Assembly: GCA_951406725.2 (NCBI GenBank) | Contig: OX597816.1 | Location: forward strand, 104,408,001-104,472,000 | Source: Octopus vulgaris | Lineage: Eukaryota | Direction of reading: 5' to 3' | Length of the DNA: 64,000 nt | Shown here: positions 7,921 through 52,229 of the stretch, piece by piece | How the letters are laid out: each line of letters opens with the position of its first letter | Numbering within the stretch: the stretch's first letter is position 1 | The notes under the pieces: model-generated | Told to the model about the DNA's origin: nothing | The model's input: only the letters and a program-made list of their open reading frames with translations | Database searches by the model: none | Program-made: the position numbers and the translations under genes

Positions 7921-8138
7921 TAGGCGAGGAAAAATTATAAAAAGGCAAAATGCTAAATTGAAGGTAAATTGTAATAAAAATGGGTGTATGGAAAATTAAA
8001 AAAAAATTTTTAAATATTAAAAAATATTTAAAAAATATTAAAAAAATATTTAAAAAATATTATTTTCCATACACCCATTTTTATTAAAATTTACCTTCAA
8101 TTTAGCATTCTGCGTTTTTATAATTTTTGCTCGCCTAT
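7921..8138. repeat. Fold-back palindrome, about 75-bp arms with AT-rich spacer
   Basis: taggcgagga...gggtgtatggaaaat (7921-7996) is the imperfect reverse complement of attttccatacaccc...tgctcgccta (8062-8138). Confidence 0.9.
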
Positions 8139-8205
8139 CATTTCTCCACGTGCGGTTGATATGTATATATATATATATATATATATACATATACATGTAT
8201 GTATG

Positions 8206-8292
<87 letters not shown>

Positions 8293-8337
8293 TAGATATA
8301 TATGTATAAGGGTGAAAAGGAACACACGAGTTGATAT

Positions 8338-8458
8338 ATATGAAAAAACAAGTCAAGATAGAAAATGCTAAAATAATTTCATAAAGAACATTTCCGGTAC
8401 TGAAATGTTCTTTATAAAATTATTTTAGCATTTTCTATCTTGACTTGTTTTTTCATAT
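8338..8458. repeat. Fold-back hairpin derived from the Penelope pLTR end, about 57-bp arms and 7-nt loop
   Basis: Arms atatgaaaaaacaagtcaag...gaacatttc / gaaatgttc...cttgacttgttttttcatat; loop cggtact (8395-8401); homologous to the pLTR at 9657-9720. Confidence 0.9.
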
Positions 8459-9708
8459 AGATATATATACACACATATACACATACATATTCACATGCAT
8501 ATGCAATCATAGGGACACATATTTTACTCATTTTTATTTACATATAATTTCTGCAAAAGCATTTTAAGTTTGTGTTTTTGTCATATCTGCATTCGGACAT
8601 CTGAGTATTTGCCTATATTGTATATTCTGTTCTTCATAATACAGCCAAAAAAATTTGAAGTGACGTGACGAATATAAAACCTTATGAAATAGAGTCTGTT
8701 AATGATGTCGTTCGAATGTCAAAATCGGTAAGGCACTGGACTAAATACTCTGCTGAATTTTTGCTACGTTCCACTAAACTTTGAGTTCAAAAACTATAGC
8801 GATCGGCTTTTCTCGTCATCTTTCTGGGTAGGTAAAATTAAACACCTGCGAAGAATTAGAGGCAATTTAGTTGTTTGTGGTAATACCTATTCTAAAATCT
8901 TTCATTCTTTGCTAATGTTAGAAATCAATATTTTCTTACCTTGCAGTTTGGTATATGCTTTCTTATCGTTTATTTAGTGGAGAGACGATAGCCACCCAGG
9001 AGATATTTTCAAATCAGGGCCGAGACGAAAAAGCGGATAAAGTAAATTATTGCAGTAGGAAATAGCGCTTAAGGATATCCTTTTTCTATTCAAATTGGAA
9101 ATTTGGTCCTATTGATTGCAACAGAATTTAATGCACTAAAAGTTAATGGTCAATATTTAGGATTTAGACTGTCACGCAAGCAAAAATATTGTTAATTCGA
9201 CAGTTTTCTGCACAGCTTATATCCACAACATATTCGTTCAAGGTTGCAAGCAACTGGAAAACATGCAGTAAGTGGGGTTGAACTGAAATTACGTGAAATT
9301 AAAGGGACCTTTATTAGCAATTGACCATTCCTACATTCACATACACCCAATGATTAAATACTGCGCTAAATCTTCGTTTCATAAAACACCCACAATTTAT
9401 CTATATAACTACAAATGTTTCGGATTGCTTATGTTTTAATTGCTTACGCAATAATGTCGGTTTGTCGGTTTTGAAGAAGTTAAAAGCCTGGTTGGGCAAG
9501 AACAAATGGTATATATATATATGAATGCCTATATGTATATATATATATATGTGTGTACATATATATGTATGTATATATATACGCATGTACATATCTATAC
9601 ATATTTATATAAATACATATACACACGTTTATATATATGTATATATATATATATATATGAAAAAACAAGTCAAAAATAGAAAATGCTAAGATAATTTTAT
9701 AGTGAATC

Positions 9709-9752
9709 TTTCAGTACCGGTTTCGGTCATTTTGAGACCTTTTCAACTGTAA
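9709..9752 (-). ncRNA. Minimal type I hammerhead ribozyme in pLTR (U3-A8 variant)
   Basis: Minus strand: ttacag TTGAAAA ggtc(tcaaaat)gacc GAAA ccgg TA ctgaaa; palindromic stem III accggt. Confidence 0.75.
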
Positions 9753-10089
9753 CGATTAAATAATTAAATTTAGAAAAATTAGAAGAAAAGTTTTTTTAAA
9801 GGAATATTTCTATAGTAGTGTTCAGATATAAGTGGCATTCTGCCTTTCTCTGACTCCCTTGTTTGCACTTATGTGTTCGAGGTCGTTGTGAGTTCTTGGT
9901 AGGGTAGGAGAAGCAGAAGGCTGATGTGGAGAGGGGGTGGGGAAATCTGGGAATGCCTTGATGGTCGTATTTTGAATGGTCAGTGGCGGACAGCAGTCGC
10001 AGTTCAATTCAGGAATTGTTTATGGAATTTGCGTAGGCGTTATACTGAAAGGCATTAGTGACAAAGTTAAGGGGTAGAAGGTGGAGAAG

Positions 10090-10245
10090 TAGAAGAAGAA
10101 GATGACGATGTTGATGATGATGATGATGAAGAAGAAGAAGAAGAAGAAGAAGGAGAAGGAGAAGATGATGATGATGATGGTGGTGATGATGATGACGACG
10201 ATGATGATGATAATGATGATGATGAAGAAGAATAAGAAGAAGAAA
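10090..10245. repeat. (GAA)n/(GAT)n trinucleotide tract in PLE 3' UTR
   Basis: Directly visible. Confidence 0.9.
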
Positions 10246-10363
10246 AAAACAGAGAAGGGAGAATATGAATGGGTGAAAGTATAGCTGTGATGGGGCTGAT
10301 TAGTAATGGATTCTATGGAATTTGTGTGTGTATATATTTCTTTTATTCTAAAGTTGAGGTATA

Positions 10364-11800
10364 TTAATTGTTTGTCGTAGACCCGTTAAGAAGTGGCCTG
10401 TATTTTGTAATAAAGAGATTTTCTTTACTTATTCGTTGTCTCGAGGTTGTATCGTCCCTAAATTGGTAGAGGGGGAAAATCCTGAAGTTTGGTGTTTTTT
10501 TGTTGGCGCAAGTGTCTATGTGTTGGCTAAAAGCTATTTTTCTGTTTTGGGGAATTTTTATCTGGGATCTGTGCAGGGCCATTCGTTTACGCAAACCATT
10601 TTTTGTTTGGCCTATGTACTGCTCTTGACACCCGGAGCAGGTTAGTGAGTATATTAGGTTCTCCGAAGCACATGTGAAGTTGCTTTTCACTGTAAACCGT
10701 TGTCCCTGTTTGAAGGAGAACTCTGATCCCTCAATTAGATAGTCGCATATCCCGCAATTGGGTCTTCCACATTTTTTTACTGTCGGCTTCTGTGTTGAAG
10801 AGTGAATTCGGGCTTGTGTTAGGAGACTTTTCATGGATCTAGGCTGTCTTTTGCTTTTTATGATCGTGTGTGTTTGGAGGATTGTGTTCATTCTGTGGTC
10901 TTTTTTTAGGAGGGGTATGTTGCGGAGGATGTTGCCGAAGGCTTCGTTATTGAGAGGGTTGTGTGTGGAGATGTATGGTAAGGCTTTTGGTTGTAAGTTT
11001 TTCTTTGATTTGGGATGTCTCAGTTCCTTGATGTTAAGTTGAAGGGCACGTTGAATGCACTTGTCAATAAGTGAAGGTGGATAGTTCCTGGTGATAAGGG
11101 TATCTTTTAGTTCTTGTAGTCGTGTGTGTCTGGTGTTTGCGTTAGAGACTATAGTGCAAATCCTTTTTGCTAGATTGAAGGGGATATTCATCCTGGTGTG
11201 TCTGGGGTGGCATGAATTGAATGGAAGATATTGCTTAGAGTCTGTAGGCTTATAGTATATGTCTGTTTCTATTATATTATTAGCTTTCTTAATGAGGATA
11301 TCGAGGAAGGGGAGTTGTTGCTGGCTATATTCCATCGTGAATTGGATGTTTACGTCCAGTCCGTTTAAAATTTCCTGGAATTCTATGAGTTTTTCTATAT
11401 TTTTATGCCAAAGAATGAAACAGTCATCTAGATATCTCTTCCACTTGTTTTCTATGTAGATGGAGAAAGGGCTGCCATATCTTTCTAGAACCTTACGATA
11501 CAGACTGATCTCTAGGTATCCTATGACTAGGTTGGCAAAGGAGGGGGCCATTCGTGTACCCATCGCAGTCCCCGATTTTTGTCAGTAGAAGTTGTCATTG
11601 AAGGCGAAGAAGTTATTTTCCAGGATGAATTTAACCCCTTCTATCACGAATTCTTTTTTGATGCGGTGTGGTAGTTCGTTGGCGTGATTCTCTAGCCAGA
11701 ATTGGATTGCCTCTAGTCCTAGGTTGTGGGGGATATTGGAGTAGAGGTTGACTACATCGAAGGATACCAGTATGGTGTTTTTGTTTATAGTATTCGGTAG
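10364..11800 (-). pseudogene. PLE reverse transcriptase / GIY-YIG endonuclease ORF, 5'-truncated, one in-frame stop at 11582-11584
   Basis: SFDVVNLYSNIP, GTAMGTRMAPSFANL, RYLDDCF, LPFLDI, YYKPT, CGRPNCGIC, NLIYSLTCSGCQEQYIGQT; ORFs 11582..11857 and 10364..11563 are in frame across the stop (FY*QKSGTAMG). Confidence 0.95.
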
Positions 11801-11815
11801 GTATATATATATATA

Positions 11816-13104
11816 CGAGGGGCGTTCAATAAGTAATGCCCCTGACCCACTTCCCATAGCAGTAGAGCAACGAAACTTGGCACAGTTATTAGTCTTTTTC
11901 TACATAGGAACCACCCAGAGTTACGCATTTCTCCCATCGTTTGATGCGGCTCTGGCGACCGTTTTTGTAGAAGAACCCAGCTTGGTCCTCCAACCTCAAC
12001 GTGACTTCAGAAATCAAGGCTGCATCATCTGGGAAACGCTTTCCTTTCAAAAACAACTTCATGATTGGGAAGAGGTGAAAATCAGAGGGTGCAAGGTCAG
12101 GAAAGTAGGGGGGATGGGGAGGAGTTCATAGCCATACGCCTGTGCTTCTGATCTGGCGACAAGCGAGTTGTGGACCGGTGCGTTGTCATGCAGGAGGAGG
12201 ATGCCTTTGCTGATCTTGCCCCGCCTCTTGATTTCGATAACTTCTCTTAATTTCCTCAAAAGTGAAGTATAATAGGCTCCTGCAGTTGTGGTACCCTTTG
12301 CCAGGAAATCTGTCATCACTACTCCGTCCTGGTCCCAGAAGACTGTGAGCATGACCTTGCCAGCGGAGGGCTGCACCCTTGCCTTCTTTGGAGGGGGTGA
12401 GTCACGGTGCTTCCACTGCATTGACTGGGCTTTGGTCTCTGGATCATCGTGATGGACCCAGGTTTCATCCTGTATAATCAGTCTTTTGAAAAATTTTGAC
12501 TCATCTTCTTGGCACATCTCCAAATTCACCCTCGAGCACTCGACGCGTTCTTGCTTCTGGAAAGGCGTGAGCAACCTGGGAATCCATCTGGCAGACACCT
12601 TTTGCATATGCAAATGGTCATGAATGATAGTTTCCACAGACCCGGTACTAATCTTGAGCTCATGGGCTATTTGGCGAATAATTATGCGTCGATCTTCTAA
12701 AATGGCAGCCTCAACTTGACGGACAGATGCCTCATCAATGGCAGAAACGGGCGACCAGATCTGGGAGCTGTTTCCACAGAGTTCCGACCATGTTTGAATT
12801 CACGATGCCAGCGTTTTACAAGGACATATGATGGGGCATCATCACCATAAGTTACTTTAATTTCATCAAAAGTCTCCCGTGGTGTGCGTCCTTTCAAATA
12901 CAAAAACCGGATCACTGCTCGACACTCAACAGGCTCCATTTCACACTTGACTCGGTTCAAACACCTGTAAATCAGAAACCACAATTAATTCAGAGCTGTA
13001 ATTTGCCACTTACTCTATAGAGATAAAATGATTGCACATACAAACTTTCAGCTAGATCAAACAACTGCAAGTGGGTCAGAGGCATTACTTATTGAACGTC
13101 CCTC

Positions 13105-13105
<1 letters not shown>
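11816..13105 (-). mobile_element. Full-length mariner DNA transposon (about 1.29 kb) with frameshifted transposase
   Basis: TIRs cgaggggcgttcaataagtaatgcccctgacccactt / aagtgggtcagaggcattacttattgaacgtccctcg, TA flanks; motifs WIPRLLT, QDETWVHH, HDNAPVH, GKVMLTVFWD. Confidence 0.95.
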
Positions 13106-13160
<55 letters not shown>

Positions 13161-13244
13161 AAGGGTGGAAAGGAACACACGAGTTGATATATATGAAAAA
13201 ACAAGTCAAAAATAGAAAATGCTAAGATAATTTTATAGTGAATC

Positions 13245-13289
13245 TTTCAGTACCGGTTTCGGTCATTTTGAGACCTTTTTCAACTGTAA
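13245..13289 (-). ncRNA. Hammerhead copy in upstream pLTR (one extra A after the core)
   Basis: Same as 9709-9752 but core reads TTGAAAAA. Confidence 0.65.
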
Positions 13290-13546
13290 CGATTAAATAA
13301 TTAAATTTAGAAAAATTAGAAGAAAAGTTTTTTAAAAGAATATTTCTATAGTAGTGTTGAGATATAAGTGGCATTCTGCCTTTCTCTGACTCCCTTGTTT
13401 GCACTTGTTTGCACGACCTCGAACACACAAGTGCAAACAAGGGAGTCAGAGAAAGGCAGAATGCCACTTATATCTGAACACTACTATAGAAATATTCTTT
13501 TAAAAAAACTTTTCTTCTAATTTTTCTAAATTTAATTATTTAATCG

Positions 13547-13590
13547 TTACAGTTGAAAAGGTCTCAAAATGACCGAAACCGGTACTGAAA
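13547..13590 (+). ncRNA. Hammerhead copy in inverted pLTR
   Basis: ttacag ttgaaaa ggtc tcaaaat gacc gaaa ccgg ta ctgaaa. Confidence 0.75.
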
Positions 13591-13633
13591 GATTCACTAT
13601 AAAATTATCTTAGCATTTTCTATTTTTGACTTG

Positions 13634-14658
<1,025 letters not shown>

Positions 14659-51560: not shown

Positions 51561-52229
51561 TCAGGTCATCTGATAAAGGGGAAGTTGAAGTCACCCATCA
51601 GAAGCACGTAATTGTAATGTTTAATTAAACACTACTGTCTATATCACGCTCAGAGATTTAATATAGCTTATTTCTTCTTTTTCGAGATCAGCGACGGTTT
51701 GTCGCTGGAAAAAGCATATAGTATTTTGCTAGTGGAGTGATTTTTCATTACTAACTGGCGGTTAACACACGCTGAGGACGGATAACCACCCAGAAACTCG
51801 AGTCCGTGTGTATCACGTAATGGTAGATATGGGAGCGATGACTTCCCCTCGCAAATATTAATCGAACGCAGAATGTGTGTCGTTAGCCAGCTGGAAGAGA
51901 TGTTTTCCTGGGGTTATAAGAGAGAACGAGACAGATAAGAAGAGAGACAGCACAGCGATGGTTTTGGCTGTCATCCTGTACTCCCGTTGTTGCTAGCGAA
52001 ATGGTATGTGCCGGCTGTCTGAGCAAACACGCTACTTTTATTGGCGGAACAAACAGGACAAAAAGATTAGAAAAATAGCGATTCTCACATTGAAACTAAC
52101 AATTTTGAAGATACTTTTACATTACAGAACACCCCGCTCTCTTCTTCATGCATCCATGTTTAAAATTTCAGAGCGATTGGATGAACAACCCGGTTTATAA
52201 GCGCACAAACAGACAAACAAGCAAAACAG

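Follow-up and report, generated by a model that had tools for sequence, protein, structure and literature searches.

Insertions of Penelope-like elements (PLEs) have been described as an inverted, 5′-truncated copy accompanied by a tail of 30 to 40 nt on one side only (PMC8557442, PMC3846280). The protein of the anole element PAc cuts and extends both strands in vitro, and two start sites bound the tail; in the same system, mutations of the hammerhead ribozyme had no effect on insertion in vitro, and no RNA-seq reads ended at the cut (PMC11167929). The minimal hammerheads of PLEs have low activity in vitro, and their description states that in vivo evidence was lacking (Cervera and De la Pena 2014, PMC4209133), and their cleavage in vivo has been called unclear (PMC8557442). 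RtcB ligates U6 snRNA ending in a cyclic phosphate (U6>p) to 5′-OH RNA before LINE-1 retrotransposition, at variable LINE-1 positions (Moldovan et al. 2019, PMC6789731), and it circularizes retrozyme monomers in vitro (PMC7229834). Our literature search found no paper on U6-Penelope chimeras and, among titles and the beginnings of abstracts, none that reports PLE breakpoints at the hammerhead cut.

The in vivo cleavage of the weak minimal hammerheads that animal Penelope elements carry is the question addressed here. We analyzed a stretch of 64,000 nucleotides from Octopus vulgaris (the window; contig OX597816.1, positions 104,408,001 to 104,472,000), in which a short hairpin folds back next to a predicted hammerhead cleavage site, together with other copies of the same family in the 2.8-Gb genome, where two young PLE subfamilies alone account for 1,754 terminal anchors.

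Structure of the hairpin and of its parent element

The arms of the hairpin (8337-8394 and 8402-8459) are paired over 58 nt with one mismatch and enclose a 7-nt loop, CGGTACT. The DNA fold has an energy of -54.2 kcal/mol (z -19), which was equalled by none of 200 shuffles. The right arm is the 3′ end of the family pLTR, 65 nt of which are identical in many genomic copies, and it shares 89% identity with a PLE copy located in the same window. The loop corresponds to the stem III and cleavage motif of a hammerhead, and cleavage (GTA^C) is predicted between 8399 and 8400. The left arm, with TTTC as its last bases, reaches 8394 and leaves a gap of 2 nt to that bond, or of 3 nt if the shared C is assigned to the right arm. 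The right arm retains 5 to 6 nt upstream of the cut, and the remaining hammerhead is missing from the hairpin.

These features had been recognized in the earlier note, which gave arms of about 57 bp homologous to the pLTR end, assigned the loop to the cleavage motif, placed the left arm 2 nt short of the cut, and pointed out that the few nucleotides kept by the right arm do not fit a simple snap-back; all of this holds. Its delimitation of the element held for the arms but missed the outer parts. The insertion begins at 8304, the whole unit measuring 154 bp, and has an 11-bp target duplication, TAGATATATAT, on its two sides, at 8293-8303 and 8458-8468 (both on the plus strand; the inner bases of the left copy may overlap the element end). 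Reading rightward from the left duplication, a 33-nt PLE tail, i.e., the pLTR continued into the element body (8304-8336, minus strand), is followed by the left arm (8337-8394, minus strand), by CGGTA as a remnant of stem III and the cleavage triplet (8395-8399, plus strand, placed by homology to the intact motif), and by the right arm, which runs from the predicted cut to the pLTR end without a tail (8400-8457, plus strand). The tail, found on the left arm only, differs at one position from what comes after the 5′ pLTR in the full element L074.

An inverted 5′-truncated copy, a one-sided tail of 30 to 40 nt and a target duplication, by which EN+ PLE insertions are recognized, are thus all present. 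Judged by this architecture, two short copies of the element end, joined head to head, make up the hairpin, which is a full Penelope-like insertion. It is an ordinary PLE insertion product and, by itself, weak evidence of cleavage. As the right arm crosses the predicted cut, the RNA that served as its template was uncut.

The internal junction is unique among the 35 short hairpins of the family (40 to 180 nt), whose junctions vary; 74 longer hairpins (181 to 360 nt) were also found, with varied junctions among the 50 matches listed. A MITE or hairpin DNA transposon family was considered and rejected, as the internal junction is unique and not repeated across copies. Contigs of four other sequencing runs neither confirm nor contradict the locus, none of them bridging the hairpin junction or the right flank.

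The PLE copy used for comparison (9657-11810, minus strand; left end exact, right end approximate) belongs to a sister subfamily. It is 5′ truncated and retains part of the reverse transcriptase (RT), the GIY-YIG endonuclease, and the 3′ pLTR. Its open reading frame matches Pfam GIY-YIG with an E value of 1e-4, at the cut-off, and the endonuclease is preceded by a C-x4-C-x2-C linker that fits the Neptune-type linker of PMC8557442. In the full element L074, a 244-nt pLTR stands before ORF1 and again after ORF2; the open reading frames encode 437 amino acids and a 762-amino-acid RT with a Pfam RVT_1 match (E 3e-8). Within L074:1323-4858, the 437-amino-acid frame, which has no Pfam match, overlaps the RT frame in a different register, so that the layout may represent two ORFs or a frameshift; the tail is in frame with the first.

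The parent element thus has the makeup of an EN+ PLE, i.e., an RT with a C-terminal GIY-YIG domain and a pLTR on both sides of the coding region. With EN+ PLE insertions as described, this system shares these domains, the pLTRs, the head-to-head inverted copy, a TA-rich target, and a short duplication. It differs from the insertions presented in those accounts in that both arms of the octopus hairpin are shorter than 100 nt and that an excess of arm ends falls at the hammerhead cut.

The PLE copy carries an intact minimal type-I hammerhead motif of the family (9712-9749, minus strand; motif type from PMC4209133), CAG UUGAAAA GGUC-ucaaaau-GACC GAAA CCGG UA^CUG. It is composed of a U3-A8 core, a 3-bp stem I, a 4-bp stem II, the palindromic stem III ACCGGU, and the triplet GUA. 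The commonest form of the motif among the retrieved copies has the structure of a minimal type-I hammerhead, and cleavage is predicted for it. At the gathering score, Rfam gave no match in the window, the motif included, and thermodynamic folding of the monomer did not yield the catalytic fold, as expected since stem III has 2 bp. The short stem I, palindromic stem III, covariant U3-A8 core, and pLTR location are as in the minimal hammerheads of PMC4209133; unlike what is given there, genomic junctions mark the predicted bond here.

Two other repeats lie near the insertions of this family. Another family forms a fold-back at 7921-8158 whose extension is also one-sided, and the hammerhead of that family was looked for and not found. 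The TA tract between the PLE copy and a second family hairpin holds an element at 11817-13107 with terminal repeats and a transposase-like open reading frame (12059-12799), which we take from these two features to be a Mariner-like DNA transposon.

Breakpoints of the family around the predicted cut

Arm ends were placed on a scale that runs along the cDNA, with 0 for an end at the predicted cut, negative values for ends short of it, and positive values for ends past it. The census took in those arms of the two young subfamilies in which the consensus breaks off before +24. The search patterns, which excluded two conserved C's, gave 83 + 53 = 136 places; by estimate, this filter misses 30% of true ends as well. 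A script called 125 places, the other 11 being read-through with small indels. Removal of 13 small internal indels and 3 duplicates left 109 ends, and 99 remained after 9 same-direction jumps and one row out of range had been set aside, 7 rows having been relabelled or corrected by eye.

The ends are not distributed uniformly, an outcome that speaks for the earlier note in the comparison of genomic breakpoints with the GTA site which it proposed. Between -24 and +23, 51 of the 99 ends lie at or just 3′ of the cut, inside the 12 of 48 positions from -9 to +2 (4.3 per nt), with 24 ends in -24 to -10 (1.6 per nt) and 24 in +3 to +23 (1.1 per nt). As the window -9 to +2 was picked after the data had been seen, a scan statistic was applied, which gave p=0.0003, with the same outcome when same-direction jumps were included. 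The a priori window -2 to +2 contains 20 of the 99 ends, against 10.3 expected (p=0.003). We also used the region +34 to +70 as a control, in which 18 truncations were found among the first 100 of 196 matches listed, 15 of them checked on the sequence and 3 by eye. Over the matched chromosome range, 28 ends fall in the 12 positions from -9 to +2 and 18 in the 37 control positions, i.e., 2.3 versus 0.5 per nt, an approximately 5-fold difference (p=2e-7).

The short palindromes ACATGT and ACCGGT near the cut can bias short hairpins, and the peak for all inversions pooled is reproduced by a null model in which microhomology is strongly weighted and partners are short (p=0.80). After removal of short-partner hairpins, 29 of 61 ends lie within -9 to +2 (scan p=0.006). 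The same interval holds 11 of the 19 ends of long-partner inversions, with p values between 0.004 and 0.03 under microhomology-weighted nulls, and 26 of 38 for inversions with at most 1 nt of microhomology or with filler. For flank-joined arms alone, the count of 18 in 42 was not significant (scan p=0.21), and neither was that of tailed arms in the a priori window (5/29, p=0.18). In the hairpin's own subfamily (39 places), about 5 of 14 truncated arms fall in the window as judged by eye, too few for a test.

The size of the effect was obtained from unselected arms, taken as the first 100 anchors of contig 1, 15 of which ran beyond the retrieved DNA. The main accumulation, 27 of 100, is at +151 to +186, the 5′ end of the pLTR and likely the transcription start, as opposed to 4 of 100 at -9 to +2, or 5 once a single miscall is corrected. 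Four contig sets presumed to be of RNA origin showed no ends at the junction of pLTR and ORF1, although contigs would not display such ends. The proposal that cleavage defines the ends of PLE transcripts is not supported by the counts of unselected arms. The counts indicate instead that cleavage marks a minor class of ends, roughly 5% of arms. The window itself contains a counter-example to fold-back at the cut, a second hairpin insertion of the family (13153-13650) whose tail is one-sided and whose arms meet at about +158/+172, well away from the cut. In general, since such ends exceed the background, an arm end at -2 or -3 has the better chance of deriving from cut RNA. In this enrichment of genomic ends at the cut, the octopus family differs from the anole element PAc, for which cleavage is dispensable in vitro in the experiments cited above.

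Junctions with U6 snRNA and with foreign hammerhead halves

A separate search was directed at arms with a non-consensus base directly after the cut. It returned 53 places, of which 52 were recovered; 27 of these represent substitutions or small indels, and 25 are true ends at 0. Nine of the 25 are joined to a recognizable RNA end, namely 2 to U6 snRNA and 7 to the 5′ half of a foreign hammerhead. Both U6 3′ ends were confirmed by Rfam (67 and 56 bits). Captures of either kind were absent from the 109 filtered census arm ends.

The seven junctions with foreign hammerhead halves, each half ending in its own GTC, occur at five loci, and a further one is degenerate. L235:985-1112 (C6:112178029) and L236:958-1054 (C7:119341302) are chimeric on both arms; the others are at L241:1060-1125 (C18:83605003), L335:1531-1600 (C5:35699537), and L372 (C29:13588999). 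Three of the five loci first surfaced in hairpin searches that were blind to position. Because one C is shared with the PLE, these joints are exact only within 1 nt. Native relatives of the foreign halves, at L149, at L183, and in the window at 51765-51811, continue with their own stem I of 6 to 7 bp and not with CTG. The relative in the window, which corresponds to the half at L335, is a type-I hammerhead motif with a 7-bp stem I and a palindromic stem III. We considered that L235, L236, and L241 might represent a separate subfamily with a GTC hammerhead and rejected this, as the 5′ strand of stem I pairs over 0 to 1 bp with CTG; in the native relatives of these halves, that strand pairs over 6 to 7 bp with its own 3′ strand. 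The captured halves resemble retrozyme-type type-I hammerheads with a stem I of 6 to 7 bp, and their donors may be retrozymes or other PLEs.

Starting from U6, we found 110 U6 3′ ends in the genome, and what follows them was judged from the 100 listed, most by eye only. U6 leads into the PLE family at four loci, and 6 of the 52 U6 3′ ends in retrieved loci join the family. In all six junctions, the family sequence starts with the first base past the predicted cut. They are located at L330 (C3:110309883), at L341 (C6:109376332), and in two hairpins with U6 on both arms, L434 (C3:84712686) and L435 (C3:85068105). In two further families with a visible native upstream motif, U6 also joins at the predicted cut (L447; L449 and L450). 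A weaker case is that of L440 and L448, where U6 stands at a 4-nt and a partial match to a family with the motif CCAC...GTA^GTGG, and at L454 the joint with another PLE-like family has a one-T ambiguity. At L451, L452, L453, and L444, the native upstream motif was sought at the U6 partner and was not found or gave a weak match only. Sequence related to the fold-back at 7921-8158 of the window comes after U6 at L451 and L452.

Most U6 3′ ends among the matches listed are followed, as judged by eye, by SINE-like heads, TA tracts, or unique DNA. Loci L429 and L457 comprise one tandem U6-U6 arrangement and one U6 pair placed tail to tail around a TA tract. At L349 and L352, arms end at the cut and give way to an inner portion of a common SINE-like repeat, which may be target DNA or a piece of RNA that was captured.

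U6 RNA and the 5′ products of hammerheads end in a cyclic phosphate, and the 3′ products of hammerheads begin with a 5′-OH. The positions of the junctions and the kinds of partner fit the joining of a cyclic-phosphate 3′ end to a 5′-OH end, a chemistry that we infer from these two features. From the sequences of the joints, the exact-cut chimeras likely record cleavage in vivo followed by ligation of the RtcB type. As in the U6/LINE-1 chimeras of PMC6789731, the 3′ end of U6 with its five T's is joined in sense orientation to a retroelement fragment that was then retrotransposed. Unlike in the chimeras described there, the octopus PLE junctions have a fixed place at the ribozyme cut, and the captured RNAs include 5′ halves of other hammerheads. 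Non-LTR retrozymes provide another parallel, their hammerhead-cut RNAs being substrates of RtcB in vitro (PMC7229834; bioRxiv 10.64898/2026.07.22.740005); as described, however, they circularize their own ends, whereas the octopus chimeras join the ends of two different families. The genomic copies serve as a fossil 5′ RACE, in which a minor stop is seen at the bond predicted to be cut, along with joints, exact to the nucleotide, to U6 and to the 5′ halves of other ribozymes. This approach makes hammerhead cleavage testable in any genome without bench work.

Origin of the copy and of the chimeras

A two-armed insertion may account for the hairpin. The PLE protein would nick both strands of a TA-rich site, and reverse transcription would begin at two sites about 33 nt apart, as the one-sided tail suggests here; each arm likely arose by reverse transcription from a nick, one on either DNA strand. 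The cDNA of the right arm would have read through the cut position into stem III, on an uncut template as its sequence indicates. That of the left arm would have run off an already cleaved 5′ end and stopped 2 to 3 nt short of it after slight trimming, and the two cDNA 3′ ends would have been joined with 1 nt of microhomology. Going by the sequence of the locus and of its relatives, we hold it to be fairly probable that this is a two-armed insertion with a left arm probably from cut RNA, and that cut RNA is a real but minor class of template. For the left arm of this particular hairpin, the odds of a cut template are about even. The idea of a genomic footprint of cleavage, first raised for this copy, thus stands for the enrichment at the family level and more sharply for the exact-cut chimeras, but the hairpin alone carries it only weakly.

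At the level of the family, the 5′-OH end of the cut RNA may sometimes be ligated, likely by an RtcB-type ligase, before retrotransposition, the partners being RNAs with a 2′,3′-cyclic phosphate such as U6 snRNA and the 5′ halves of other hammerheads. We lean slightly toward the general proposal that PLE hammerheads cut in the germ line and that the fragment with the 5′-OH end and the RT start sites becomes ligated to whatever RNA ends in a cyclic phosphate and is retrotransposed. The findings suggest that chimeric retroelements can arise through RNA ligation guided by ribozymes. If this is true, ribozyme-guided RNA recombination would let PLE families swap 5′ modules and spawn new non-autonomous elements.

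An origin without cleavage is conceivable for this copy, though we find it unlikely: both cDNAs would have extended into stem III of uncut RNA and paired at the self-complementary ACCGGT to give a perfect hairpin, from whose center 5 nucleotides would later have been lost. The junction indeed equals a perfect ACCGGT-centered palindrome minus 5 nt, with a C on each side, and two of the 35 short hairpins are perfect palindromes of this kind (C1:32782103, C2:167450887), further short ones being centered on ACATGT. Such erosion leaves unexplained the enrichment among long-partner inversions and flank-joined arms (the 29 of 61 above) as well as the exact-cut chimeras; it applies to this copy alone.

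For the chimeras, cleavage could be real and ligation dispensable if reverse transcriptase jumped from the cleaved 5′ end of the PLE RNA to the 3′ end of another RNA. U6 RNA is abundant, which speaks for such a jump. End-to-end template switching, moreover, is among the routes listed for LINE-1 chimeras (PMC11838501). However, the RNAs captured at the cut fall into two kinds, each with a cyclic phosphate at its end, U6>p is ligated to 5′-OH RNA by RtcB (PMC6789731), and the same kind of chimera is found on both arms at L235, L236, L434, and L435, which fits a chimeric RNA formed beforehand. We consider the jump unlikely, slightly less probable than erosion of a palindrome, and retain ligation before retrotransposition as the preferred reading.

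Stalling of RT at a folded or protein-bound uncut hammerhead would produce the accumulation from -9 to +2 without any cut, with chimeras arising as template jumps from the stalled position. The local fold is the first stable structure that RT meets, 40-nt windows near the cut folding at -4 to -7 kcal/mol versus about 0 downstream, and most ends lie short of the cut rather than on it (6 at 0, 6 at -1, 10 at -5). Yet the structure is weak, the constrained hammerhead monomer folding at -5.4 kcal/mol, and stalling would neither put all six U6 and seven hammerhead junctions on one bond nor select partners known for cyclic-phosphate ends, which makes this account quite improbable. That a single cDNA reached the cleaved 5′ end and then self-primed or switched strands, as the earlier note had proposed, we regard as very improbable even though self-priming has been put forward for palindromic PLE junctions (PMC3846280) and the left arm ends near the cut, since a snap-back from a cleaved end cannot include the 5 to 6 nt that carry the right arm across the cut, a snap-back of the tailed left arm would not by itself give a one-sided tail, arm lengths differ greatly in long-partner inversions, and the one-sided tail with the target duplication fits the two-armed PLE insertion.

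Small deletions recur across or beside the cut in other copies (L100, L172, L309, L147, L227, L305, and three places of the hairpin's own subfamily). The lost sequence is stem III, between TTTCAG and TTTCRG repeats, or else a few bases at the cut, and the losses may be microhomology deletions or scars of cleavage and rejoining.
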